Shown here: one piece after another, positions 573 to 61,965 of the stretch
How the letters are laid out: each line of letters begins with the position of its first letter
Numbering within the stretch: position 1 is the stretch's first letter
DNA from: Psammoneis japonica
Taxonomy: Eukaryota
Assembly: GCA_008632985.1 (NCBI GenBank)
Contig: QPGO01000072.1
Span: forward strand, 124,001 to 188,000
Direction of reading: 5' to 3'
DNA: 64,000 bases
Program-made: the position numbers and the translations under genes
The notes under the pieces: generated by a model
The model's database searches: none
Told to the model about the DNA's origin: nothing
Seen by the model: only the letters and a program-made list of their open reading frames with translations

Positions 573-3500
573 CTACCTTCTTGACTGCTGTCTCTTTGGG
601 CAATCCTTAGAATGCGCTGGTCGACCTCTTGGTCGGCACCCCGTCACGCTGTAGCTTTGCTGCAGCTTGTATTGTAGGAAAGCAGGACAACAGTACGGAT
701 CAATGTCTCGCTTCCTTTGATCTCGTATTGGATCATTAAGAGTTGAAAGAGCCGGTTGCACTTGATATGGAACAGATGGGAGGGCTGCACTCATGCTCGA
801 TGCAAAAGCAAGCTGTTGCGAGAGGGTGCTTCTCATGGCTTGCAACATGTTGAACTGCTCCTCGACTTGAACGTGAGCTGCATTAAGCAATGGAGTGGCA
901 TCCATGCACATAGGTTCAACCGTCACCTCGGGAGCCATCGCAATTTCGGCAATGCCGCTTGTAGGTTCAACGGTTGGCGCCGCTGCAGTTTCCCCATCGT
1001 CACGGTTTCCAACTTCTGATCTTGTTGTTCGCTTGTATGGATTTTGCACCGGTTTCGTCCCACAGAGATTGCACATGCATCGATCTGTCTCGGGGTGTGG
1101 AGCAATCGTTTCATTTCTTGCATTCTGCTCCAGCAGGTACTGGGACAAGAAACGCTCGCCGGTGTCCTCCTCGAGTTCCCTTACATTCGGATATGGCGCT
1201 TTCTTCCCCTTTTTTATTGCAAGGTTATTGATTTCAATTAGATCAAGTACATTCCGATGAGTAACCACGCCCCGAAAGTCGTATGGAATCTTGGCTCGCG
1301 CCGTTGCATCCATTTTCTCGATTCGCTCCTTCTCTTCGATTGTTTCATTGTACAAAACTAATCCTTCCAACGTAAGCAAGTCCATCAATGAATGTCTCAT
1401 TCCGCAATTTCCATAATGTGCCAGTGAATCGTGTGCCTTCTCCAATTTGGATTCTGGTCCTAGCAGCGTTCGCCACTTTACTAGTTTTGCTTTCGACCGC
1501 AGGGACGGCGCTACTGGCCAGTACTGCTCCGACTTCGGCACTGGAGTGTCTAATCCCTTAGAGGTTTCTTTCGCATTCAAAATTGCATCCTTTGTGTCGG
1601 TTGTAAACAGTGTTAGTCCACTGTCTGGATCTAGCCGTCCTCCGGCAGCGGGGGCTCCGTCGGAGGCAGTGCACTTGTATCGAGCAAACCAATCCTCAAG
1701 CAAAGTGAGCCTTTTCTCCAGCGGGTGCCTCCAGAGACGAATGTATTCCTGGTAGTGCTTCCACCTTGAAGAGTGGATGATATCTTGTATCTCCTCGTCA
1801 GAATGCTTTTTGTTGTTTAGAGTGCCATCCTTCAGGGCTTGTATCACAGCTTGGCGGTCGGACCACTCGGCATACGATACGGTCGCCTTAAGATCACTTA
1901 CAGCTTGCCAATAATCAGCATGCTCTTTTCGGAGCGTTCTTACAATTCGATGCATCCAATGAAAGAGCCCGAGCAGACAGATTAGGTTCATTCCGAAAAT
2001 TGTCTTCCATAGCTGCGACTTATGCGGCCAGGTGTCGCTGTAGTGGATTTTCGGTCGTACGTTTTTTCGCCTGGCAAACTGTTCTGCCGCGTGAGCAAAA
2101 TCTTTTGCTTCCAATGTTGGGGTTAGGCAAGCGGTTCCTACCTGCCCCTTTTCATTGCACATGGTGAACAGGCCAGCTGCTCCACCTGCTTTCTTTGAGT
2201 AGTTTTTGAGAATCTGAAAAGTGTGATCGGATGCGACACTCACGGCGGCTCCAACCATCTGTATTAATCTCGTGCACCTGTCATACGAGGACGTGGCCAG
2301 AGCTGTCAATTTTGATTTGCCGCTTTCGTCATAAAGATCGAGAAGTGCAGAGCCTGATGGACTGTACCCGCCCATCCAATCCTCAAAAGACACCCAGTCT
2401 TCGGTTTTGTCTATGGCTCGGTCATAGTATTCTTTCTGGAGGTCCTTGAAATAGTCGGCTCGCATTTGGTGCAGCATGTGCGAGAACTTATCCCCGCCTG
2501 CGTACGTGACAACAATGGACTCAAGGAGTCTTGTAGTTTCCTTGGTAAGATGCCACTTGTTGGTTGCACTAGCATACTTAGGCAACGTTGGATATGCTGA
2601 CTGTAGGCTTTTTGGCAGCTTGTGCAGTAGTCGACCGTCGTTGCCCTTGCATCGAATTTTGCATTGATTGCATTCGTACCACATTGACACCGCCATGTGC
2701 GTCTTCCCGCTGATGCAATATATTGGTGTCGCCCCACCGTATCGAGTAAAGTCCATACGGTCATGAATCATTTCACCGTCGCACTCTCCGTCAATGCAGG
2801 GGATGTAGATGTTAGGATAATTCAGCTCCCAACAAACAATGTGTATTATCATACCTTGCAGCTGATGGTAGTAATAATCAGGTGGCAATGTGCAGTCATC
2901 CTTGGGAACTTCAAATGATATTGTACCAGGAGGAAAAGTTTCATCCTTAAGCTCCAGCATCTCGTTGAGCTTAATACTTTTTGCTGTAGCCACAGGATAC
3001 TTGTTGCTGCCTTGCTCGAATCTGGGCTTGATAGAGTCCAACAGATAGCTGATGAGAGCACTTACTGCAGCCGGGCACTTCGTCCTCTCCTCGGAGTTCT
3101 CGTATTTTTTTACTCTTGCTCGAATCTCTTGTTTCAAAGTCTCAACCGAAAATTTTGTAATAGCGGCCGCCTTGCAAGTATTATCCGTGTACTCCACGGG
3201 GCCTGCAGCACCAGCCACCCCCGAATTCACCGGCTTGCAAACATTGGAAACACCTGGAGGAGGCAATATGATGCAAGCTTCAGGTCTCTGTGTTCCAAAA
3301 TGGTCTCGTATGGTCGAAACTCCCTCAACTGGGGCAGCCGGAATCGTGTTGTTCGTTTCGTGCAGCTCTTTATCGCGTCGCTCTGCATCCATGGTAGCTT
3401 TGGTGACGTTCACTTGCGAGTACCTTTTTGAAAATTTACATGTGGGATCATGGCCATGATGATATGTAGGACCTCTCTCACATCTCTTGCATTTCTTCGT

Positions 3501-3770
3501 TCCGTCGTCTACTCTTGCTACCTTACGCCCACTAAAATCGCTCTGATGCGTCCGCTTCTGGCGTGTGTGCGCTTGGCTTTTGCTCGTTTTGATGGAGCCT
3601 TTGCGTTTCTGGGATTGAATGCCCATGTTTCTAAAGAAAGGATGCAGCTGCCGCTCTTCGGCCTCTTTTGTTGGAGCAGATTCTTCCGTTACGTCCGTCA
3701 TCATCGAAGCACCAGTAGAGATTGTACTTTTCTCTCTCGTGGGTTTTTTTTGTGAGAGAATTTTTCTCAT
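573..3770 (-). mobile_element. Intact Mutator-like (MULE) DDE transposase ORF, ~1065 aa
   Basis: Intronless ORF from first ATG at 3770. Motifs VASDHTF (D1), CNEKGQV, YSDTW (D2), LGLFHWMHR (C/DxxH-like), SKLEKAH (E), plus Cys/His clusters at both ends. Termini not identified. Confidence 0.6.
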
Positions 3771-4389
3771 CGCGTGAGAAGTCTGTGTTGTTGTGATTTT
3801 CCGTGGCGCGAAAGGAAGATGACAGTCGGTCTCCGCATCATTCTGATTCTTGTGTCTGCTTTTGGAGAGTTGTCTCAACCTCCTCGTCCCTAAGTGATTG
3901 CGTCAGATTTTCCAAAAAAGTGTTAATTAATTAGTCGGAAAGTCCTCGACTTTCCGAGGGTCTCCCCTAAGTAGAAATCCCAAATGCTGAATTCTGATTG
4001 GCTCTCGTAGCGCCATTCCTAATCCTCCCTCGGGACCGAAAACCCCGTCTCAAATCTGAAATCTGAATCGTGCCACCGGAAAAATCAAAGACCGACATCA
4101 TGACGTTTTCTTGCTAAATAGCTCGAAATCTACTTAATCTTTTTCTCCTTACCTGAAAGCTACTTATTTGTAAGAAAACGAGCTCCCAGTGCAAGAAAAT
4201 CATGGTGGTCATGCGCGCTGTCGCGCGAGTAAGACCCCATGCAGAACAGGTTGTTCGTGCTTTTCTGCATTCTTCGGAGCGACGTGCAGACTATACTGAG
4301 ATTACCCGTAGAAAGCCAGTAGAAACAAGTAAAAAATCTACTTCATTTTTCTCGTAAAAGGGCCAAAATTTACTTTACTTACCCGACAT

Positions 4390-5977: not shown

Positions 5978-7315
5978 ATGCTAAGTAGATTGGTTTCTTT
6001 GCCGCTTCGATTCTTACTCGTCCCCTCAAGCACAGAACCGATCTTTTCTGTGGCGCTCCATCAACAACAGGCGAGCAGCATGTCAACCGCGGCCGCCACA
6101 GCTTACCCTTGGGGCTGTACAGCCTTGGTTGATCCTGATTCGCATGAGGTTCAGATTGAACGACTAGTGGGTTACAAAGACACTGACGCAGACGCTGTTC
6201 GAAGGCTAGATGGCCTGACGAAGCTCCTCGACATGACAAAGAGTCCAGACTGGATGGAGTACATTGAAGTGGCGGAAGATCGAATCAACGATGAGGGTGG
6301 AGCGGGCGCTTACGACACAATGCGTTGTGACATGCTTGTTAATCCAGACCAGAAAGGTTCTAGATGGAACATTTGGGGAGAAGAGTTTCATTTGAATCGA
6401 CTGAGGAACTCGTTTCGATACCTGCTCCATGAGAATGATCCAGAATCGCACGGAACTGTTTCGGAAAGTGCCATTGGGATGGCCATGGAAGACTCCCATA
6501 AGATGCTCAAGCATTTACTTGGCGAGGCAGAAAAGGCAGACATATTTAAAGAAACCCAAGCGGAAGCTTCTAATCAGCAGTTGGAGGACGTTCTCGTCCA
6601 ACCAGTTCGTCTATCCTTGCTGTGGTCCCTTCCCAAGACGTTGAAAGGCCGGGTGGTCGTACGGGGCCATGCTTGCAGCACCACAAAGCCAGTTTTCATC
6701 CATCGACCATCCAAGCCGATTACTGTGACAATTGCTGCCGTTGGTCACAACACAACAACCATGGAGGTTGATGAATCCATGCCAACAAGGCTCCGTGACC
6801 CCCAACACAAGGTTGCTTCGTGGACACGCCTCCGACAGAAAATGGAGAACCCTGAAACGTACATGCCAGAGGGCGTATCCGAAGTACTCATGGTGCGACA
6901 ACGCAAACAAGATGGTGCGTTGGAAGTGCTAGAGGGCCTTACGAGCAACTTTTTTGTCATTTACAAGGACGGAACCATTCGTACTGCGGAGGAAGGAGTG
7001 CTGCATGGATATGCAAGGCACCTTGTTCTTGAATGTGCAGAATTTTGTGGCCTAGTCGTGGATAAGGATAGGCCTATTCTCATGAAAGACTGCACAGATG
7101 GCCTTTGGGAGGAAGCCTTCATTACTTCCTCGTCTCGACTGATCTTTCCAATATCGAAGATTCTCGTTCACACGGACGACAAGACGGACTTTACAGAGTT
7201 TTGGTGCGATCCGGTCCTGACAGAGGCATCCCAAAACCCTGTCAGGAAAGAAAAACAAAAGTGGAGGCAACTGTTGGACGAAATACTGAATCGAGCAGGA
7301 TACCCGGTCTTGTAA
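5978..7315 (+). CDS. PLP-dependent aminotransferase class IV family protein (BCAT/ADC-lyase-like)
   Basis: 445-aa ORF with EGLTSNFF, GVLHGYAR and EAFITSSSR fold-type IV motifs. Confidence 0.85.
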   Translation: MLSRLVSLPLRFLLVPSSTEPIFSVALHQQQASSMSTAAATAYPWGCTALVDPDSHEVQIERLVGYKDTDADAVRRLDGLTKLLDMTKSPDWMEYIEVAEDRINDEGGAGAYDTMRCDMLVNPDQKGSRWNIWGEEFHLNRLRNSFRYLLHENDPESHGTVSESAIGMAMEDSHKMLKHLLGEAEKADIFKETQAEASNQQLEDVLVQPVRLSLLWSLPKTLKGRVVVRGHACSTTKPVFIHRPSKPITVTIAAVGHNTTTMEVDESMPTRLRDPQHKVASWTRLRQKMENPETYMPEGVSEVLMVRQRKQDGALEVLEGLTSNFFVIYKDGTIRTAEEGVLHGYARHLVLECAEFCGLVVDKDRPILMKDCTDGLWEEAFITSSSRLIFPISKILVHTDDKTDFTEFWCDPVLTEASQNPVRKEKQKWRQLLDEILNRAGYPVL

Positions 7316-7580
7316 CAATCTGTCGGCAGAGGCGTGGAAATTAATGTAAACATCTAAAATCTATGTGAATCTACTTCTTATCTACAATAGACAAATGCCT
7401 CCCAGCTCAGCTGTGGATTCGTAAGGCCAATTCGACGTCGCAGCTTTCATTTTTTTTTATGGAATTGAATAACTGGTTTTCCATAAAAATGATGGTCACC
7501 ACGAATAGATCCGCGGCTACCGGTAAATGAAAAGATGGGCCGAGCGGGACAGGAATCGGGACATTGATGCCAACCTGACC
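7205..7580 (+). repeat. Left copy of ~380-bp direct duplication (live aminotransferase 3' end plus dead copy of MMSDH 3' end)
   Basis: Aligns with 9741-10124 from tgcgat(c/t)cggtcctgaca to gacattgat(g/a)ccaacctgacc; MMSDH-derived part has indels. Confidence 0.92.
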
Positions 7581-9636: not shown

Positions 9637-9740
9637 GCCAACTCATGAAGCAGTTTCCGGTGGCATTTAGTTCATACATAACAATGCTATAGTTCCTTTT
9701 TCCAATGTCACTAGGATTTATATGTGTCAAAGAGTTGTAG

Positions 9741-10124
9741 TGCGATTCGGTCCTGACAAACGCATCCCAAAACCCAGCCAGGAAAGAAAAACAAAAGTGG
9801 AGGCAACCGTTGGACGAAATACTGAATCGAACAGGATACCCGGTCGTGTAACGATGTGTCGGCAGAAATACGCGAGCAAATAATAATGTACACATCATAT
9901 ATAATCTATGTGATCTACTTCTTACCTACAATAGGCATGGTAACGCCTCCCAGCTCAGCCGTGGATTCGTATGGCCAATTCGACGTCACAGTTTTCATTT
10001 GTGTATAGAATTGAACACCTTGTTTTCCATAAAAATGAACGTCACCACGAATGGATCCGCGGCTACCGGTAAATGAAAACATGGGAAGCGGGACAGGAAT
10101 CGGGACATTGATACCAACCTGACC
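9741..10124 (+). repeat. Right copy of ~380-bp direct duplication (dead aminotransferase 3' fragment plus live MMSDH 3' end)
   Basis: Direct alignment with 7205-7580. Confidence 0.92.
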
Positions 10125-11745
10125 AACATTTATTTCATGTTGAAATTTGCGTGCAGCTGCTCCGCTCTGCGTAAATATGGCACACCCATTGCCGTAGGGG
10201 TTTGCATTGATAATGTCCATAGCTTCCTCCAATGAATCGGCTCCCAGGCATACCAACACCGGACCGAATATCTCGGTCGTGTACGCAACATTGTCAGTCT
10301 TCACTTGTGAGAGAACACAAGGGCTGACAAAATTCCCGTCCTGATATCCATCCACCACTGTGTTTCGACCGTCCAAATCCAAGACCGCACCCTGTTCCAC
10401 TGCCTCCCCTACAATGCGCTCAACTCGTTCTTTGGATTCGGCGGAAATGAGGGGTCCAATATCCACTCCATCCTCTAAACCCGAGCCAACACGCAACTTG
10501 CTTGCCTCTGCTACCAAGTCCTGAACCCACTCGCGGGTGGATCCCACGAACACCACTGCGCTCAATGCCATGCAACGTTGTCCAGCAGCTCCAAAGCCCG
10601 CTCCGACCAAGGCCTTGATGGTGGATTCGCGATTTGCGTCCGGCATGATTACAGCTGAACAACGAATCAAATGAAAAGCAGTACACAAGTCAAATAAATA
10701 ATGGCATTTCCAAAACGTAGATAGCAAAGTAGGACATTCCTTACCGTGGTTCTTGGCACCGAGATTGGCCTGAACTCGCTTTCCATTCGCACTTCCACGT
10801 GCGTGAATGTAGTTACCAACACCACAAGAGCCCTGCAAGATATGAACACATGTATGAGAGACAAGCAAATCATAAATCCCACAATTCAGTATCCCAAGCA
10901 GTAGCAATGAGTTTACGCACCACGAAGGAAATGGCTCGAATATCATCATGATCACAAATGGCATCCACCGTTTCTTTACCGCCATGTACAATGTTCAATA
11001 CTCCGGGTGGTAAACCGGCGTCTTGAGCGAGTTGTGCAAGGAGCATGGATGCTCCAGGTGTCTTTTCACTTGGCTTGAGGACAAATGTGTTTCCACTCGT
11101 GCAGGCAAGAGGAAACATCCACAAAGGAATCATGGCTGGAAAGTTAAAGGGACAAACACCGGCACACACCCCCAAGGGTTGTCGATACGAAACACAGTCC
11201 ATCCCAGAAGCAGAGATCCCAGGCATTGCGTCTCCTAATAGCTTGTCTGCCACGTTGCAGGCCGTCTCGACAATTTCCAATCCACGAAACACGTCGCCAC
11301 GAGAGTCTTCCAGCGTCTTGCCGTTTTCAAGTGACACAAGGTACGCGAGCTCGTCGGTGTTTTGACGAATCAACGATTGATACTCCAACATCACGCGCTG
11401 TCGCTGTTGGACCGGCACGTGCTTCCAATCCGCAAAGGCTTCTTTTGCAGCTTGGACGGCGGTATGGAATTCATCAGGGGTCGTCTGTGGAACTTGGGCG
11501 AGAACTTTTTTCGAATTGGTGGGATCATGTACATTGAACCATTCGCTCGCCGTAGACGACGTAAATTCCCCATTGATCCAATTCTTGTAGAGCACCGGAT
11601 CTGCAGAACTGTCAACCCAATCTCCTGAATTCGCAGTCGAAGCAAACGAACGACGTGGGGCAGAGCTAAGAAGAGCTGTAGGTTTCCAACGGACGGCGAG
11701 TCCAAGGACACGGTACATATGGGTTCTCGACAGTTCAGATAGCAT
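9915..11745 (-). CDS. ALDH6A1: Methylmalonate-semialdehyde dehydrogenase, mitochondrial; introns 10833-10920 and 10655-10744
   Basis: [56 protein letters not shown] introns restore ISFV|GS and NH|AVIMPD. Confidence 0.95.
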
Positions 11746-12553
11746 ATTGTTAGACTACTACTTCTTCTATCTCTGAAGGGCGAAGGTAGTGTATCGTGCA
11801 TTGTGTGAAGATCTGAATGTCAGAATTGGCAAGCTTCCGAAACGAGTCAAGCGCGCTGCTTGCGCGCGATACGTGATGCCAATGATGGCCGGTAACTCCA
11901 TCCAGCGGCACCAACTTCTTTCTGGTCCCTTGTTGAGACTGCATTTTAGAGTATTGTAAGTGCAGAGAAGAGAGGTCGTCCAACAATTTTGGTTGCGTGT
12001 ACTAACTGTAGCGACAAAAATTCTTTTGCACTACCAACGTGCCACACTGTGCACTAGAAGTACAAAATCATATCCATCGCTACATACAGGCCTGATGATG
12101 AATACCGTGCATGAAAAGATGGGTCCCATTTTTAGGCTTTTTGGGGGGGGGCAACCACCCTTTGAGATTCTTCTCGCCTTCCTTTCTGTTCCGTTGCATG
12201 ATCAAACAACATCCTTTGCTCTTGACCAAAGACCTCCCTTGGGACCAAAATCTTCGAAATAGTCCGATTAGGACGGTGCCTAAGTAACGTTTCGCAATTG
12301 CTACTGTCGATCGTTAAATGACATAATTTTATTTATCTCATCTATACAAACCGAAAAAGTCGTAGGGCAGTATTACTATTTTGTCCATATCTAATCTCTC
12401 ACTTTTTCTTGCTCGGCTCTTCCTGTTTTCAACACTCTGTGGTGCCGAGTCAGTCTGGAAAAAGTCGAAAGTACGACTATGCTCGAAACGCGTTGCTTCA
12501 CTTTTTAATTCCTGTTCCTCCATTTTGATCATTACGTTCTTTATTGCACAAGG

Positions 12554-15830: not shown

Positions 15831-18120
15831 GGGGGGCAAATGACAAGGATGTTTTTGTGTGTGGTTTGCTGGTCTTTGTCATTGTGACAAGTTTTCTCAA
15901 ACTGCCTGTCTTGTCAGAGATTGCTGCTCAGCCAAGAGAGTTGGCTGGTGTGCAGCATCTAGCCTCACAGCTGCTGACATGCAACATTTTGAAACAAGGC
16001 AGCTGTGATGGTGGTCCACCAAAGTTCTGTGGGTTGTGGCCAGGTGAGAGAAAAATTTGTTGTCTCTGCACAACAAAGTCTCTTCACAAAACTTCTCAGC
16101 AGATTCAAGATGAAAGGGCTTTTGAAGAAGCTGCAAAGTCTTGCATTTTTGCTCACTTGATTTGATGGACAACTTCGTGAAATTCCAAGCCACGGCAGTG
16201 GTTTCCCAACCACACCACTTGTTTCCATGACAAAGTGGTTGGATGGAAAGCATTTTGTCAGTGGTGGCACCTCCCATCACACCACTGTCAACATCCTCCA
16301 GTCTCTGGAACTTTGTCTGTGTGTGCCACCTCCTCACTGGCACAAGAACTTGACATGAGCAAGTCATGTGTGCAAAAACACCATTGCACTTTGGGGCCCT
16401 TCACTCTCCACTCTGACTGCCATTGCCACTCAAAAGCTCTGGCTGCTCCGTGGCCCCATCAGGTGCTTTTGTGATGAGCTCCCAGCTGGAGAATGGTGGG
16501 TTCTGCAAGTTGCATCGGCCAGATGATGAATTGTTTGAACCATCTGCACCTGCAAAAAGCAACTTGAGCAACCAGCCAAAGCAAGCGCCGTTGTGCCAGA
16601 TCTGGCACACATGTGAACAACCTGCAGAGAGTGGCACACTCCACATTGTGGATGCTGCTGGCAGCTCCCTCAACCAAGAGAGGGCAGCCCACTCATGTCC
16701 CTGTGATCAGTTCACAGAAGATGATGAATGGAGACTCAAATTGAGGCTCAGATCATGACCTCTTCTTGGGGGAGATGAGGAGGTGCAGTGCAAAGCCCTG
16801 TGGGCCCCATGTGTTGCCATTGGCAAAAGTCCTGAGAGCTTGAAAACAAATGAAAAATCCTGCATTGCAGGAGCAAAATGTGGCACTCACAACGTTCAAA
16901 AATGAGACACACAGAGAGTCAAAGTGGGCTGCATCTCACCAGCTTCATGTGGCTCCCATTGTGCAGCACAGCACACACACAGCAGTCATGACCCATCCCA
17001 TGGATTTTTCATCTCCTGAGAAAGCAGTGCCAGCAGCCTGCTCCAGCTCTGGGTGGAATGATTTTGGATGTTCTTGCACTCCTGACAAAAAAAATCTTTC
17101 TCAAACACTCACCTCCTCCACAATGTGAGTTTTCAAAAGAAAGGCATGCAGTCACATGGAACAACACAACACTTTGCATGTGACAAAAAGTCTTGCTTTG
17201 TTTGAAAATGTCAAAGTCAAAGCAAAGAGCAGATTGACAAGATGTGATTTTGCCAAGTGTCCCAAACTGCATGGTTTTGGACCACCACACCTGGAGTCAG
17301 AGCAGGCCCAGCACCTGCTTCAGCAACAGCGCTGCTGGAGCAATCCAACGGCAGCTGCAAAAATCCTCCAGTTGCTCAGCCAGCAGTCATCATGCCATGC
17401 TGCTGCCAGCATGGTGGTGAGGAAGGTCAAAGCTGACAAAGTGTGGGCATGGTGGCACAAGAGGGGCAAGCAGCAGCAGCATCTTTCTCAAGGAGCTGGG
17501 TGAGCAGAAATGGCTGGAGTGCTGGTGGTTTGAAAAAACAGAAGGGAAGCTTCCAGCTCAGTGCTTGATGCAGCTGACAAGGTGGCAGATGCACCAACTG
17601 CAGAGAATGCCAAGGAGCTTCTTCACATGCTTTTTGCAGAGGCCTGCTTGGGTGTTTGTTGTTGACTTGGGGTTGCATCAGCCTTCGTGCGCCTCCTTTG
17701 CAGAACTGTGTCTCAGTGCAAACCATCAGATGATGGAGGAACCCCAATGCATCTGGGCTCCGGAGCTTGTGTTTGTTGTTTGCACATCCAAGTGTGCAAA
17801 GGGCTGATCAAGAAAACACACAATGGCCAAAGTTTGCAGCAAATTGAAAGCACACACACTGCTTTTTCCAAACAAAATTGGAGTGGGGGACACACACACA
17901 TCTGATGATGAAAATGTTTGTTTGATGGTGTGATGCCACCCAGTCTGCTTTCAGGTGACATCTTTGATGGCTGGAGTTGGTTGGAGCAGCAGGGGCTGCA
18001 AATGTGGAGTTTACATTTGCTCAATTGTGGCTGTTGCCTCTGGTTGTCAAAGCTGTCTTTGACATCTGCCTTGTCACTGACAACAAACAAGTTGACAAGA
18101 CACAACTGAAGCCTTGGCTT

Positions 18121-18420
18121 TTCTCATCAGGAGAGAGAATTCTTCCCCCATCTCTGATGTGCCAGAGGGGCACATTGCTTGTGGGAGCTTCTGTGCTCAT
18201 GGGATGAGGATCTTGGAACTTTCTTTGTTTAAAAACAAAGGTGCAAAGTGCAAACTTCATTGGAAAAGACAGCTCAAACAGGGCTGCTCTCTCTGATGTT
18301 CAGTTGGACAGCTGCTGGGGGCTCTGGCTCAGCATGTGGCATTGTTGATTGCCACGGGGTTGGTGTGGGTGTCAATGTCATGCATCAGCAGCTTGCAATG
18401 TGCAGCACATGATGCAAGAG
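18121..18420 (+). repeat. ~300-bp dispersed repeat, copy 1 (copy 2 at 20613-20938)
   Basis: Shared blocks cttgtgggagcttctg, gatcttggaac, aacaaaggtgcaaagtgcaaactt, gcaatgtgcagca..tgatgcaagag. Confidence 0.85.
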
Positions 18421-19839: not shown

Positions 19840-20590
19840 GAGGACATTCTGTTTGCTCCAACTCCAGCTCTGGCAATTGTGGGAGTGGTTGACTTTTGCA
19901 AGAGCACTGAACAAAAGCTCTTCCAAACTGGTTTGGAAGAGCTGAGTGGAGAGATGTTCAACTGCACTCCAGGCAAACTCTTTCAGTTCCTCAAGAATGT
20001 CAACAACAGGGCCAGCTTGCTTGGATGGAATGACCTGGTCATGGGAATTTTCACAACACCCCCAAGGACCCTGATGACCCCAATGCAGTGCACTCAAACC
20101 TGATCACCAGTTGTGGTGAGATCAGCTTGGAGCACATCAAGAAACACCAGGAGCTGCACATGAGGATGAACCCTTGTTGTGCAGCCCAAAACACCACCAT
20201 GTTTGGACACTGTCTCATTGGTTTGATCTCCAAGAGTGGAAAGGAAAAGATGCACATCCATGACAAGTCCTGAAAGGCTGGAGACAAGATTTCTGGCTGT
20301 CTGCTTCTTGAGGTCAACACTCAAGAGTCATGCCTTGATGCAAACATGACCATGAGCATGATCTGTGTGAAACTTGTGGAGTTCTTTTGTCGACACTTGC
20401 CCACAATTGGTTCACAACATTGCAAAGTTCAATCAGCATGGCTCTCCTCCCCTCATGGCATTGAGGTCTCATGGCAAAACCATGATGGAAGACCTCCTGA
20501 CAAATCTGTTTGGAGGGCACTTGGCTGCTTCTGACAAGAGCTTTGTCAAGTGCACTGGAAACAAGCAAGAGGAACAAGTTGACAAGATTG
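19840..20590 (+). mobile_element. Diatom Copia (CoDi-like) gag relic, frameshifted
   Basis: FAPTPALAIVGVVDF..KLF..FNCTPGKLFQFLK..RA..GW, NLITSCGEISLE, EDLLTNLFGGHLAASDKSFVKC resemble recalled CoDi gag segments. Confidence 0.7.
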
Positions 20591-20612
20591 TGCAAGTGTC
20601 AAGCCCCAGCTC

Positions 20613-20938
20613 TTCTCACCCGGAGAGAGTGGCACTCTCCCCCGTGGCTCTGATGTGCTGTGCTGAAAGGGGCACATCACTTGTGGGAGCTTCTGCACTC
20701 ACAGGATGAAGATCTTGGAACATGTTTTTGCCCAAGCAACAAAGGTGCAAAGTGCAAACTTTGTCAGGAAAAACAGCTCAATCAGGGTCAGTCTTTCTGA
20801 TGTTCAGTCAGCCAGCTGCCTGCTGGGAGCTCTGGCTCACATGGTGTTGTTGTTTGCCATGGGGTTGATGCTGGTGTCGATGACATGTTTGTCAAAGCAT
20901 CTGCTGCAGCTGGCAATGTGCAGCATGTGATGCAAGAG
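20613..20938 (+). repeat. ~300-bp dispersed repeat, copy 2
   Basis: Aligns with 18121-18420; begins where the gag relic ends. Confidence 0.85.
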
Positions 20939-21477
20939 CTCGCAACACTTGTGCTTGGGCTCAACAAAGATGGAACATGCCAACATGTCCCACCAAATTC
21001 CAAGGCTTTGGCCTCTCTCTCTCCTGGTTGAGTGTTTGGTTTGAAGTGCAAAAACCGCAGCTCCTGCCCTGTTGCCTGTTGAGAACAACATTGCCTTGAG
21101 AGGCAGACAAGCTCTTGACATGTCATGTTGGGCCATTTTGAGTCACAGACTTGGGGTGTCAGTGGCCCACTCTCCTTGTGGTTGGACATGCCAGCTGCTT
21201 TGCTGTTTTGCACACGCAAAAAGCACGTGTCTCTGCAGCGTGGATGTTTCGCCATGTGGCATCATTTTTGACAGTGCCCAGCTCACCCCAGCTGACAGTT
21301 TGCACATGCAAAAGTTCACAAGGAGGCCTGCACACAGCCCTGGAAGAAGCCCCTGCAACCAAGCATGGCGCGTTGATGCTGTGCCCTTGTTTTTCGCTGT
21401 GTGCTGCCCACACTCATTGACAGGATTTAAACAAGATTGACCAACTCGATTAAATCCGACCCATCAACCTGAAAAAT

Positions 21478-21541
21478 TGCGATACCCAGGAATCGAACCT
21501 AGGTCCTCTTATAACCGGTTACCGACTAAACCATTTACCGC
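21478..21541 (-). ncRNA. tRNA-like Pol III unit in the 3' LTR (anticodon arm reduced)
   Basis: GCGGTA/TATCGC acceptor stem, A box TGGTTTAGTCGG, T arm CTAGG-TTCGATT-CCTGG, then a TTTTT run. Confidence 0.75.
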
Positions 21542-21978
21542 TTTCTTCAAACTGACAGGCTTTTTGTACATAGTCACACATGTTTCAGCCAGAGAGTGAC
21601 ATACACCTTTAATTCTTCTTAGAATTCTGTCACTCCCCATATGTCACGAAGCTGTCTGACGTCACGAAGCTGTCTGACGTTCCTTTCTTTGGACAATGAT
21701 ACTTCTCACAGCTCCCCTTCTACCTGGGCCACATTTTTCTGCACATGTCATGACCTCCCCGGCGAACTGATAATTGGGCGGCCATTCCGGCCTCGGCATC
21801 CCTAATAAGAGCACTATGTGCATCGTCGGTCTGTCTCACCGCAGCCTCTCCTCAGTTTTAGAGTCATCTTGAAGGAGCACACACACCTAGGTTCAAATCA
21901 TCAACGGTCCTCGCACCATGACAGGATTTAAACAAGATTGACCAACTCGATTAAATCCGACCCATCAACCTGAAAAAT

Positions 21979-22043
21979 TGCGATACCCAGGAATCGAACC
22001 TAGGTCCTCTTATAACCGGTTTACCGACTAAACCATTTGCCGC
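21979..22043 (-). ncRNA. tRNA-like Pol III unit in the 5' LTR
   Basis: Same as the other LTR, with a perfect D stem GTTT/AAAC. Confidence 0.75.
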
Positions 22044-22134
22044 TTTCTTCAAACTGACAGGCTTTTTGTACATAGTCACACATGTTTCAGCCAGAGAGTG
22101 ACACACACCTTTAATTCTTCTTAGAATTCTGTCA

Positions 22135-22490
22135 CTCATCCTCTCATCCAGCACTGCCACAACCCCCAAGTTTGCTTTGAAGAAACTTGGAAAAGGAGAC
22201 AAGGCTTTCCATTGCTGCTGAGAGAAGCCATCATTGAACAGCTCTTGGAGCCACGCAAAGAGCCCAAAGACAGTGGGGGGGGGGGGGGGCGGGAGTTTGA
22301 CGAACCTTGGCCTTGGCGTGGGTGCTTTGAGGACACTTCTTGCCACTTCTTGGCTCTGAGGATTGCCAAGCCTGCTGTTACAGTGCACCAGCAGCACACA
22401 AACCTCATGCTCCTGCCTGCAGACTCCACCAAACTTGCCTCACAACCACCTGCCTCTGTTGGGGCGGCTTGGCCCTCATGCATGCTCTGC
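22135..22490. other. Continuation of TpA-depleted island 3 beyond the TRIM
   Basis: About 1 TA in ~350 bp, then an abrupt return to TA-rich sequence. Confidence 0.8.
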
Positions 22491-23219
22491 CTAGACTACC
22501 TGCCGCAGGTGGAGCTTCTATGTACCGGTGCCGGCATCTCCGTGTCTGTTTCGTAATCTCTTGGCATCAATTATCATATATTCCGCTCTGAGGATGAACA
22601 TCTAAAAAGTTTCGTTGAGCGTTAGCAAAGTACTGTACTAAAGTATCGGTACATTATTATCGGAATCATCGTTTTATAAACCTATGACTATGTAGGTACT
22701 AAATACGATTTTGAAATCTTATTTAAAAATATTCATGCACTAAGAAGGCGAGATTTATTTGCCGTTCATGATTACCTTCATTATATAATAAATGTTAATA
22801 TATGCGGATGATTATATTTTTTTGCCGCAACGCACATAGGAAAACTCCAAAACAGAAGCGTGGCGATTGACGATGTTGTGGCTAATTTCTAATGCGCTGT
22901 CAATACTGTATAATTGCATTAACTTTGACTTCATTGTGTGGGCGAGCTGCAGATCACTCGATGGTGTCTAGTTGTGACAGTCGCTGTAAAAAAAGATCTT
23001 TCGGCTGCCGTCTTTGATGCGCCGCATCTCGATTCTATCATTTTTGCATCATGTGCGTCACATACATCATTGTCTAACGGAACGAAGGCCGCCTTGTTTT
23101 TTGAATTCAGATTTTGGTGCATTTCACCGTTTGAATCGATAGCTTTTTTCGTTGTTTCGCCGTTTACTCCTGAACTGTGCCGCACACAATTTTTGCAAAG
23201 TTCGTACCGTTTCGCAATC

Positions 23220-52317: not shown

Positions 52318-55300
52318 ATGATGATATCAAGCGCTTATCGGTTGCTGTTGATTGCGGCAACGGGACGGTGTGCGTCAGCGCAAGTCCCGATTGGTTCTTT
52401 TGAAACGAGGAATCACGACGTTGACGGCGAAGTCTTTGCTCTCTCGGAACGAGTCCTCGAGGTGCGCAATTTCGTCTTTGACGGAAATGCTCCGGCTGCC
52501 TTCTTCTGGGCAGACGCAAGTAGTGATCCTACGAGTGGTGGTAGGATTCTTCGAGACGCGAGTCCTACGAACAGCTGTGGTACTCAACAGCTACCGGGTG
52601 CTAATGGAACCCAGACATTCAGGGTTGAATTCCCTGAAGAGACTTCAATCCTTGACTATCTGGGCGGATCTATAAGCGTTTGGTGCGAGGCATTTAGTGC
52701 CAACTTTGGAGAAGTCGTCGTACCCGCGGAGCTTCCAGGACTGTTGGCTACTGCTGATGGCCCAGCGTTGGAATGTTCCAAGTCATCCTCCGCCAGCGAC
52801 GGCCTCCTGATTGGTTCTTTTGAAACAAGGAATCACGACGTTGACGGTGAGGTCTTTGCTCTCTCGGAACGAGTGCTCGAGGTGCGCAATTTCATCTTTG
52901 ATGGAAACGCTCCGGCTGCCTTCTTCTGGGCGGACGCAAGCAGTGATCCTACCAGTGATGGTAGGATTCTGCAAGACGCGAGTCCTACGAACAGCTGTGG
53001 TACTCAACAGCTACCGGGTGCTAATGGAACTCAAACCTACAGGGTTGAATTCCCTGAAGGAACTTCAATCCTTGACTATCTGGGCGGATCTATAAGCGTT
53101 TGGTGCGAGGCTTTTAGTGCCAACTTTGGAGAAGTCGTCGTACCAGCGGAGCTTCCAGGACTGCTGGCGACTGCCGATGGCCCAGCCTTGGAATGCTCAG
53201 ATTCACCGGAACCTGGTCCCGAAGAACCAACTTCAATCCCCGTTGGCGAATTCAGGACGAGAAATCACGATGTCGCCGGACAAATGTTTGCTCTGTCGGA
53301 ACGCGTCTTGGAAGTTCGCAATTTTGTGTTTGACGGGAACGCACCAGCAGCTTTTTTTTGGGCCGACACAAGTAGCCGTCCTTCCGACAACGGCTTGATA
53401 TTGCAGGACGGTAGCCCGTCGAGGAGTTGTGGTGAGGACGAACTACCCGGTGCCAATGGAACCCAGACATACAGGGTGGAGTTTCCTGAAGGAACGTCTA
53501 TCTTGGACTACCTCGGCGGTTCAATATCTGTGTGGTGTGAGGAATTCAGCGCCAATTTCGGAGAAGTCATCGTCCCTGATTCCTTACCAGGGTTGCTCTC
53601 TACAGAAGACGGTCCAGCCTTGGAATGCTCTGCAAGTCCGGTCCCTCAAATTGCGGTGACACCCGCCGACTACAACTGTGAGCCTCTGAGTGATGAGTAC
53701 CAAGTGCGTTGGCAAGTACAAGGTGATGAGATTGCAATTGAACTGGTCGGTCTGATTGACGACGATGTCTATATGGGATTCGGACTCTCAGGTAGCAACA
53801 ACCAAACCTTAATGGTTGGTGCAGATGCAACCATCGCAGACTTCTTCAACGGGACCTTCCGCGCCCGTGACTTTTACATGAGCGAACAAGGCCAATGTAG
53901 CAGCAATGGCCTTGGAGTGTGCCCTGACGCTGGTGACAGTTCATTAGCTGACAATGTGACATCGGTCTCGGGTCTGCAAGAGGCAGGGGTCACGCTTGTT
54001 CGTTTCAAACGTCCATTGGAACCTTCCGATGTTGGTGGGATGGTAGCCGGGCAATCTGTTGACAGGTCATTTTCTGCGGAACCTGGTGTGTCATCTTTTA
54101 TTGTTTGGGCGCTTGGACCAATCCAGCTTGAAACTGGTTTACCATTTTTCCACTCAATTGACTTTGCGCGAGAGAACGTAGCCCTTGAATTCGGTCGAAC
54201 CGTTGCAAACAACTGCCCGCCTCTCGTTGGCGGGACAACAGCTCCAGCTCCCGGTACAGACGCCCCGGAATTGCCACCCTTTTTTCGACCTCCCATCGTT
54301 AACACAACGGAGCTAGTGGCTCACATTGGAATTTCGGGTGGAGAGCGTGGTGTGGAAAAAATAACAAATCGCACTGCATGGGGAATTGCATGGTGTAAGT
54401 GTGGCTTCGGCAAGATGTTTGTGTAGCTCTGTTCACGCCGCTTACTATTTGCTTCCTTCAAAATACAGACATCAACGACCTTCTTATTCCGGTTATCGAG
54501 ATGCGTCGTGGTACAACATATACTTTCAGAGTCAATGGCGGCGATGACCCATCGCAAAATTCACGATATCACCCTATGTACATTACGACAAGCGATTTAG
54601 GCGGTTACGCTCAGCGAACACCAGCGCAAAGACTTGAAGAAACAGTACTCGCAGGACTTAACATCGTGGATAACACGGACGAAGGCTTCGAAATTCTAGC
54701 GGCTGGTCCAATCTGTCTCTACGGGGCCACGGACGCCACAGCAGAAGCATCTATGTTTGGAACGTACGACCAGTTCTTCGCCTCGCAGGACACCTCATGC
54801 GCGGACGACACGACCCTCCTCGACCAAGCCGCAGTTCTCGAGTTCACGCCAGATGCGAGTACCCCTGACTTGATCTATTATCAATGCGTCACTCACACAA
54901 GTCTTGGCTTCGAGATTCGAGTTATCGACGAAGACGCTCCATCGATTGTCGATGTGGATTGCTCCACTTCAAGCACAATCGATCTCGGTGATATTGTCGT
55001 AAACGCTGTTGTTGATCCTGTGACAGCAACGCTGACCGCTGAAGTCATCTATAACGGTATCGGCTGGGTGGCAATGGGTTTCACGAACGGCGATGCCGTG
55101 ATGGTAGGATCAGAGGCCGTCATTGGTTTGCCAGACGAACCTAACGGCCCGTCCAACCCAGGAAAGTACAATCTGAATGCCCGTAACCTGCCTGGAGTTG
55201 AGCTAATGCCAGAAGCACAGCAGACGTTGATCAATTCAACCATTGAGCAGACGGAGTCGCAGACAATCATGAGGTTCACAAAGCTACTCGTGGAACCGGG

Positions 55301-60552: not shown

Positions 60553-61965
60553 GATAGACGGTGAAAAAGAAACGCGCGACTGCATTCGAATCATTGTCTG
60601 AAAACGTGCTCCGCAATGCTAACGCCAGCCCGCGTGTTCCGTTTGCCGCTATACGGGTATAGCCGCCGTCCACGGACTGCAAACATCATTGGATGAACAA
60701 TGATTGTTACTTACAAGCGTGTCTCAATGCGTTTGATGTTCCTGAAATCGTTCTTGATGTAGAGTTTTCTGATCGTTTCTTTGTCTCTTTTTCTATTTTT
60801 ATGAGAAGGGTGGTTCGACACCAAGTATAACATCGGGTTGTTCTCGTTCTCCGGTGATATTTCAAGAGTCATGAATAGCTATATGTTTCCGGATACAATG
60901 TTCTTTCAATGTTCATGAAGGTGTGGCACAGGACTTGCAAGAACGCTTTGGCGGGAATGGCGTCTCGGATTTCTCTGGACCGGAAGATCTCTAGGTTTCC
61001 CGGATAGTTCAATTCATACAGAGTGAGTCATGTGTTTCCCGGATAATTAGTAGAAGACTGTTCTGTCAACATTCAGGAACGTTTCATCCCTGAGAATAAT
61101 GTTTTGGGAGAAGCGAAGCGCTTTAATGTCCACGAAGGTGCGGCACAGGACTTGCAAGAACGCTTTTGCGGGAATGGCGTCTCGGATTTCTCTGGACCGG
61201 AAGATCTCTAGGTTTCCCGGATAATCCAATTGATACAGAGTGAGACATAAGTTTCCCGGATAATTAGTAGAAGAATGGTCATTCAACATTCGCGAACTTT
61301 TCATCCCTGAGAATAATGTTTCGAGAGAAGCGAAGCGCTTTACTTTTTTGCGAAGCGAAGCCGTCTCTTTTGCGAAGCCGTCTGTCCTGCAGCCGCCGGG
61401 CCCTCCACATGTACCGGTATCATACAGTACTTCTGCTCTTTTTTTTTGCTTTTCTCTACTCTAAAAGCTTCAGATGGGCTTGATAGGCGTCAATGGCAAT
61501 GCATGATAGTGCAAACAGAGAGTAATAGAGGCTTTGTATGGCTTTGGGTTCACTTCAAGCAATTTGCAGTCGAAGTACATAACATGCGAACTACTGTACT
61601 CAGCACTTGCAGAACGCTCCTACTATAGTACGTTAGAACATCCTACCTTTAATCTGAGATATTACTTCTAACGGGATGATATTGTCTGGAATACAATATA
61701 ACTTCAGGTTCGACACGGTTGATAAGTCGATAGACGGTTAAAAAGAAGCGCGCGACTGCATTCGAATCATTGTCCCAACACGTGCTCCGCAATGCTAATC
61801 CCCAGCCCGCCTGTTCCGTTTGCCGATATAGCCATCATCCAAGGACTTCGAACATCATTGGGTGAACAATGAGTGTTACTTACAAGCGCGTCCCACTGCG
61901 TTTTAATGAAATCGTTCTTGATGTAGAGCTTTCTGATCGTTTCTTTGTCTCTTTTCTTTTTATGA
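60553..61965 (+). repeat. Compound repeat: ~240-bp direct repeats (60553-60803, 61729-61965) enclosing a 217-bp tandem duplication (60908-61124, 61125-61342)
   Basis: Direct visual alignment (cgcgcgactgcattcgaatcattgtc; ggcacaggacttgcaagaacgcttt). Confidence 0.88.

Follow-up and report, generated by a model that had tools for sequence, protein, structure and literature searches.

A recently mobile, probable Helenus-type TRIM with tRNA-like modules in its LTRs in a diatom-like genome

The locus and its gene-rich surroundings

The window analyzed here, by which we mean the whole 64-kb stretch of DNA, is eukaryotic and gene-rich. Its long open reading frames (ORFs) include those for TPR proteins, a GH3 glycosidase, a DM13-DOMON protein, cytochrome b561, and PhoX, along with an FtsH-type protease, an aldehyde dehydrogenase, and a front-end desaturase. 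Among the 28 of 63 long ORFs that were scanned, none carried a reverse transcriptase or integrase domain. The GH3 ORF matched only bacterial-labelled clusters in the Protein Atlas. For the DM13-DOMON frame, the first 25 matches were 47 to 57% identical to the query, and the named relatives (2 of 28 matches) belong to the diatoms Epithemia and Nitzschia, for which reason we refer to the host as diatom-like.

Several parts of the window are repetitive or irregular in their own right. Three collinear segments at positions 7195 to 7539 recur about 2.54 kb away, at 9731 to 10085, with 88 to 91% identity, and this arrangement suggests a local tandem duplication of about 2.5 kb beside the aldehyde dehydrogenase frames. 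The aldehyde dehydrogenase itself (9915 to 11754, minus strand) is divided between two overlapping frames that match positions 3 to 212 and 242 to 461 of the Pfam Aldedh model, and its gene therefore contains an intron or a frameshift. Three repeats of about 300 nt, spaced 420 to 432 bp apart in the DM13-DOMON frame (52385 to 53536), correspond to three DM13 domains and are thus an ordinary domain repeat. Between 60546 and 61903, a 217-bp tandem pair (60905 to 61338, 91% identity) lies between 77-nt repeats about 1.17 kb apart and makes up a repeat cluster close to the window's end, and a 1,109-amino-acid open frame at 573 to 3902 (minus strand) had no Pfam match.

The element that is the subject of this study is an LTR element of 717 bp, located at positions 21418 to 22134 and oriented on the minus strand (Table 1). 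It consists of two direct repeats in an A-B-A layout, spaced 501 to 502 bp apart and 98.6% identical, with three differences between them (two substitutions and one single-base indel). Both LTRs start with TGACAG and end with CTGTCA, which gives the element TG..CA termini. The PBS is of the TGG type and complements a tRNA 3' end of the form ...GGTCCTCGCACCA, and the PPT-like tract is a short, G-rich purine stretch. Because these two features are placed at the matching LTR junctions, the sense of the element is that of the minus strand. The only long ORF touching the element (21951 to 22439, minus strand) had no Pfam match.

TABLE 1 Features of the element and its insertion site, in window coordinates
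Feature	Position	Strand	Basis or remark
TSD CTCAT, left copy	21413-21417	.	5 nt repeated at 22135-22139
3' LTR in element sense, 215 bp	21418-21632	-	Direct repeat of 21919-22134
T5 run, 3' LTR, one base past module	21472-21476	-	A+TTTTT = 21472-21477
tRNA-like module, 64 nt, without anticodon arm, 3' LTR	21478-21541	-	Rfam RF00005, 17.5 bits, model positions 1-71
B box of 3' LTR module	21489-21499		Consensus pattern match
A-box-like motif of 3' LTR module	21522-21533		Relaxed pattern match
Internal part, 286 bp, no recognizable coding capacity	21633-21918	-	ORF and Pfam check
PPT-like tract, sense ...ATATGGGGAG, abutting 3' LTR	21633-21642	-	Read from sequence
Perfect 18-bp tandem duplication in internal part	21643-21678	.	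Repeat search
Antisense T-arm-like piece, 6 nt beyond 13-nt PBS core	21885-21899	+	Inverted repeats
PBS, sense TGGTGCGAGGACC, from first base past 5' LTR	21906-21918	-	Read from sequence
5' LTR in element sense, 216 bp	21919-22134	-	Direct repeat of 21418-21632
T5 run, 5' LTR, one base past module	21973-21977	-	A+TTTTT = 21973-21978
tRNA-like module, 65 nt, 5' LTR	21979-22043	-	Rfam RF00005, 17.5 bits, model positions 8-63
B box of 5' LTR module	21990-22000		Consensus pattern match
A-box-like motif of 5' LTR module	22024-22035		Relaxed pattern match
TSD CTCAT, right copy	22135-22139	.	Directly after second LTR; skip in the empty-site contig = 717+5

The insertion interrupts no convincing ORF. 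A 370-bp segment is repeated about 2.5 kb apart with 74% identity (18086 to 18420 and 20573 to 20938). An insertion into a duplicated gene was considered and rejected, as this segment is all that is shared and 480 bp separate its end from the element. A run of 15 G residues (22275 to 22289), surrounded by mixed sequence, lies 140 bp from the edge of the element.

A tRNA-like module in each LTR

Each LTR contains, at LTR positions 92 to 156 in element sense, a module that retains an acceptor stem, a D arm, and a T arm of a tRNA, lacks the anticodon arm, and has A+TTTTT after it. The two copies differ by T or C at module position 5 and by one additional A in the D loop. In these respects the original prediction, which was made from the sequence alone, described the module accurately: the sequence that it quoted occurs in both LTRs in element sense with the variants as written, a T run follows each copy, and an anticodon arm said to be cut to about 10 nt corresponds to the 11 to 13 nt or so that we observed between the D and T arms. 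The predicted acceptor, D, and T arms are likewise present, as is an exact B box, but the A box departs from its consensus at one position. The roughly 11 to 13 nt take the place of both the anticodon arm and the variable loop, and the module therefore cannot be a working tRNA. We accordingly rejected a functional tRNA gene, a reading for which ARAGORN was negative as well, with zero tRNA calls in the 64-kb window.

Similarity to the tRNA family was found at a weak level. Both modules matched the Rfam tRNA model with 17.5 bits, below the gathering score of 29, and the anticodon-arm positions are mostly missing from the alignment. The covariance similarity anticipated in the original prediction is thus present, spanning model positions 1 to 71 in the 3' LTR, but it stays under the family cutoff, and ARAGORN does not share it. 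The E value of 1.3 for this match refers to 1,001 bases (21300 to 22300) searched on both strands with 4,227 families; by our arithmetic, it would be about 3e-4 if the tRNA family alone were counted. A scan of the whole window with E values up to 10 returned six unrelated weak matches and no additional tRNA-like match, and since both LTR matches themselves fall outside that list, the scan sets no background rate at 17.5 bits. Matches to RAGATH-32 and mir-51 near the element scored far under their cutoffs and were set aside as chance.

The promoter-like boxes differ in how distinctive they are. The B-box consensus GGTTCGANTCC has two matches in 64 kb, one in each LTR module, where 0.14 would be expected, and the box itself is exact (GGTTCGATTCC). 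Box A reads TGGTT...CGG, with one mismatch to TRGCY (T where the consensus has C), and the relaxed A-box pattern is no rarer in the window than chance would have it (4 matches versus 3.0 expected). The last 22 nt of the module occur at only two sites in 64 kb when three mismatches are allowed, and none of 100 shuffled sequences reached two. The distance from the start of the A box to the start of the B box is 34 to 35 nt, compared with 44 nt or more in canonical tRNA genes by tRNA numbering.

The minimum free energy (MFE) fold of the 65-nt copy contains the acceptor stem, the D hairpin, and a 7-bp T hairpin, and the fold energies of the modules are ordinary (z scores of -1.1 and -1.25). Only two runs of four or more T residues occur on the sense strand of the 717 bp, each directly after a module; the count itself points toward the depletion that would be expected but is not significant (2 observed versus 2.85 expected from shuffles).

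A further piece of the internal part resembles the module. Positions 21885 to 21899 are complementary to the T arm of the module at 13 of 15 positions, and the MFE fold of the 184-nt leader pairs the two. That fold is not significant (z score of -0.9), and the contig of public sequencing run X1 that covers position 21889 has a G there, which weakens the pairing. We do not claim a functional long-range stem between the T arm and this piece.

Copies of the element and variation among them

Base-by-base reading was confined to the one copy in the window; other copies were seen through variant tables and contig pieces. Three public sequencing runs of the same organism, all from one sample and study, were compared with positions 20900 to 22700. 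One 1,035-nt contig from run X1 covers 20900 to 21410 and resumes at 22133 to 22293, and it therefore represents an empty site. It skips 722 bp, i.e., the 717 bp of the element plus one copy of the 5-bp TSD, with 7 nt that fit either side. Contig pieces in X1 that match the stretch number 73, of which 27 are at least 99% identical, 21 are 95 to 99% identical, 16 are 90 to 95% identical, and 9 are less than 90% identical. Summed word depth in this run is 232 to 1,770 over the element versus 25 to 49 over its flanks, a measure that should not be read as a copy number. Unrelated sequence belonging to other copies joins exactly at the LTR edge at 21418.

From these contig pieces and the empty site, it follows that the family is multicopy, includes old as well as very young members, and is polymorphic here. 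The element is recently mobile and inserted here recently, and the family is probably still active, judging from a filled and an empty site that segregate. The claim of the original prediction that the element is a TRIM thus held, given its TG..CA ends, 5-bp TSD, PBS, PPT, empty-site contig, and many other copies. A sensitive blastn search found no second copy in the 64-kb window; run X1 contains many other copies. Searches elsewhere yielded no further copies; patterns for the module, exact or gapped, had 0 matches in the metagenome, viral, and genome contig collections, and a pattern for the LTR-end/PBS junction had 0 matches in the viral contig collection.

Variation among copies was examined over the 215-nt LTR at 21418 to 21632, where X1 has 12 variant sites at 10% or more of depth. 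Ten are in the 151 nt outside the module and two are inside it, at 21484 (3' strand of the acceptor stem) and 21510 (the stump of the anticodon region), with none in the A or B box. The direction of this pattern is the one that constrained boxes would give, but there are too few sites for a test and we take them as a hint. Against such a constraint, two of the three differences between the LTRs of the present copy lie within the module, and one of them unpairs acceptor pair 5-68 in the 5' LTR copy.

Some copies depart from this one in the internal part. Divergence sets in at 21659 in three X1 contigs and at 21662 in a fourth, within the 18-bp duplication, and another retains the LTR and the first 8 nt of the PBS before it differs. 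In addition, a 1,183-nt X2 contig matches positions 21802 to 21983 exactly, a span that takes in the start of the LTR, the PBS, and 117 nt of leader, and continues for 1,001 nt that were not aligned to the stretch, of which the 30 letters adjoining the match were read. This contig may come from a larger relative with the same LTR, PBS, and leader.

Relation to Helenus and the role of the module

TRIMs with tRNA-derived sequence in their LTRs have been described under the name Helenus (Kojima 2024, Biology 13:119, PMC10886601) and are grouped with Cassandra and Ajax, which both carry 5S-derived sequence, as TRIMp3 (PMC10886601). Helenus elements occur in fungi, animals, and the lycophyte Selaginella, measure 311 to 1,263 bp, have a PBS and a PPT, and produce TSDs of 5 bp in fungi and Selaginella and of 4 bp in animals (PMC10886601). 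They conserve box A (TRGCY ... YGG) and box B (GGTTC), a conservation that extends over more than 200 independent families, and most of them are not functional tRNAs (PMC10886601). In the portion of the consensus data available, the module is found in the 3' half of the LTR with a short T run after it, and the internal parts of fungal Helenus end in G-rich tracts like the PPT described here (PMC10886601). The tRNA-derived nature of Helenus was established with Censor against Repbase tRNA and SINE2 sequences, and the proposed origin is the insertion of a SINE2 into an LTR (PMC10886601).

The present element agrees with Helenus in nearly all of these features. It is a TRIM of less than 1 kb (LTRs of 215 and 216 bp, an internal part of 286 bp, and 717 bp in total) with TGGTGCGAGGACC at the first internal base, ...ATATGGGGAG at the internal end, and a short TSD, CTCAT on both sides, of the 5-bp size seen in the fungal and plant members; the 722-bp skip and the many copies attest to its transposition. 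The module reads in the sense direction and sits in the 3' half of the LTR with a short T run next to it, as in the Helenus consensus sequences available. It carries GGTTC of box B and YGG of box A, with one mismatch to TRGCY of box A, and is not a functional tRNA. Its tRNA derivation is indicated by the Rfam match (17.5 bits, under 29), the exact B box, and the D and T hairpins, with ARAGORN negative. The element differs from Helenus in its diatom-like host, in the complete deletion of the anticodon arm, which leaves a module of 64 to 65 nt, and in a PBS whose start complements the 3' end of the module plus CCA over 8 nt. Its LTR starts with TGACAG, whereas fungal Helenus LTRs start with TGTTG.

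Neither Table 1, the main text, nor the supplement of PMC10886601 lists a stramenopile or an alga with Helenus, and we found no tRNA-bearing TRIM in diatoms in the literature; the available sections of Maumus 2009 (PMC2806351) mention neither tRNA nor TRIM. Four 13- to 15-nt motifs of the element are absent from the supplementary text of PMC10886601, including its consensus file, and the element is therefore an independent lineage. The original prediction had called the element a tRNA analogue of Cassandra, and this remains apt as a description, but the novelty that it implied does not stand, as such elements have been published as Helenus (PMC10886601). The present element thus belongs to the Helenus kind, in a lineage from which the kind has apparently not been reported before.

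Other small noncoding elements share some of these traits, and three were compared with the one described here. Retrozymes are nonautonomous LTR elements of plants in which a hammerhead ribozyme in the LTRs yields circular RNA. They resemble the present element as small noncoding LTR elements with a structured RNA module in both LTRs, and this identity was rejected: no ribozyme family was among the six Rfam matches in positions 21300 to 22300 with E values up to 10. Like the element, tRNA-derived SINEs (SINE2) are short, noncoding, and multicopy and have a tRNA-derived head with A and B boxes. They lack LTRs, PBS, and PPT, end in a LINE-derived or A-rich tail, and rely on LINE machinery and target-primed reverse transcription for their copying, which leaves TSDs of variable length; the LTRs, PBS, PPT, and 5-bp TSD of the element show that it is no SINE2. 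Cassandra, a TRIM of plants (Kalendar et al. 2008, as cited in PMC10886601), is likewise a nonautonomous LTR element with a small-RNA gene module in its LTRs; according to the sections of PMC10886601 that cover it, this 5S rRNA-derived module supplies a Pol III promoter and terminator, and its transcripts are reported to begin within the 5' LTR module and to terminate within the 3' LTR module. Cassandra differs in its 5S rRNA sequence, type 1 promoter, and plant hosts from the element here, whose module is tRNA derived and would be of type 2. Identity with Cassandra was rejected, since no 5S rRNA match was found by Rfam in 21300 to 22300 with E values up to 10.

Taken together, we conclude with good confidence that the locus holds, on the minus strand, one copy of a multicopy, recently active, nonautonomous TRIM of the Helenus/TRIMp3 type in a diatom-like genome. 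By analogy with the Cassandra and Helenus model, an autonomous LTR element would supply in trans the reverse transcriptase and integrase by which this one is copied. The TSD of 5 bp fits a Copia-linked pattern, in that 5-bp TSDs of fungal Helenus are linked to Copia (PMC10886601) and the accessible part of PMC2806351 describes a diatom Copia element with a 5-bp duplication.

What the module does for the element is a separate matter, on which our confidence falls somewhat short of even. We tentatively propose that the module serves as an internal Pol III promoter and that the T5 run marks the R/U5 border. This is our leading model because of Kojima's argument for Helenus and the Cassandra precedent (PMC10886601). 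Under this model, U3 would comprise LTR positions 1 to 91, R the module of about 66 to 70 nt, and U5 the last 55 nt or so, and Pol III would pass the T5 run of the 5' LTR and halt at that of the 3' LTR to give a genomic RNA of about 570 nt. The model requires a leaky T5 run, because a T5 placed right after the module would otherwise stop Pol III in the 5' LTR. Its own authors regard Pol III transcription as unproven for Helenus (PMC10886601). The shortened distance between the A and B boxes, the T5 run, and the possible larger relative with a shared LTR call for caution about the use of Pol III; for a larger relative, Pol III is unlikely to be the polymerase.

These same points feed the most serious competing reading, in which the element is the same TRIM but its family is transcribed by Pol II, and the module is a passenger, a relic of an old tRNA gene or SINE fragment caught in the LTR, with boxes that persist merely because the copies are young. 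The youth of many copies is real enough, as 27 of the 73 X1 pieces are at least 99% alike and little time for decay has passed. A passenger would also be free to lose its anticodon arm and shorten its box spacing, to collect two of the three LTR differences, and to stand before a T5 run that would abort Pol III transcripts, and the X2 contig points to a larger relative with the same LTR. Against this, the B box is exact, and the common variants number 0 in the boxes versus 10 sites in the other 151 nt. The sense orientation, the position in the LTR, and the placement of the only sense-strand T runs directly after the modules also follow what the available Helenus consensus data show, and the boxes are conserved in more than 200 independent Helenus families (PMC10886601). 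Given how close together the boxes lie, the difficulty posed by the terminator, and the larger relative that may exist, we grant this reading a sizable minority of our confidence, and on balance we find it doubtful.

A bold but very unlikely proposal is that the module makes an RNA that acts by itself. A Pol III transcript of about 65 to 70 nt ending at the T5 run could be trimmed at its 3' end, receive CCA, and prime reverse transcription of its own family, or else serve as a tRNA mimic; if this were true, the element would provide both promoter and primer for itself. With CCA added, the last 5 templated nucleotides of the module give an unbroken 8-nt complement to the beginning of the PBS, and 10 of the last 13 nt match the PBS ungapped. 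In the X1 contig that retains the LTR and these 8 nt before it differs, a hand count finds that the complement of the PBS agrees at 13 of 15 positions with the module's 3' end and its CCA. The T5 run follows one base past the acceptor end, as in a real tRNA gene, and the T-arm-like piece just beyond the PBS could offer a second contact. However, 3 of the 8 matching nucleotides are the universal CCA, and the variant match rests on a single contig. Acceptor ends of the form GCG...CGC-A are common among tRNAs, so that the match is accounted for by a regular cellular tRNA of that family; most simply, the module and the tRNA used as primer are members of a single tRNA family. Complementarity of this sort between module and PBS was found in no Helenus family (PMC10886601).

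The original prediction also considered TFIIIC binding as an insulator inside silenced chromatin. In such a reading, the module would be a binding site for TFIIIC, like an ETC site, and form a chromatin boundary for the host or the element instead of a promoter. In favor of it, the B box, to which TFIIIC binds with high affinity, is exact and the A-box side is degraded, and this copy does lie in gene-rich DNA. On the other hand, no silenced region is evident in the window, and the silenced setting that had been supposed finds no support in the gene-rich 64 kb around the element, which contain no other copy and no reverse transcriptase or integrase domain among the 28 of 63 long ORFs scanned. 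Moreover, the element is polymorphic (present or absent) at this site and so has no fixed host function here, and we regard the boundary reading as very unlikely. Finally, the A-B-A layout with 501- to 502-bp spacing could be read as a local 1.4-unit tandem duplication of a 501-bp segment with a tRNA pseudogene and not as a transposon, but this is practically out of the question, being refuted by the precise empty-site contig in X1 and by dozens of contig pieces with different flanks, besides the TG..CA termini, the 5 bp of flanking DNA that are duplicated, and a PBS and PPT placed at the junctions where an LTR element would have them.

As a Helenus-type TRIM, the element does not introduce a new concept, since the kind has been known since 2024 from fungi, animals, and one lycophyte (PMC10886601). 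It is likely the first example from a diatom or any stramenopile and as such would favor the view that LTR elements with borrowed Pol III gene modules arose repeatedly and independently. Its reduction is extreme, with little of the tRNA left beyond the arms that hold the A and B boxes, and this bears on which parts such an element needs. LTRs of this kind may be mistaken for tRNA pseudogenes in the annotation of algal genomes. With a filled and an empty site that segregate, the family could be studied in culture.
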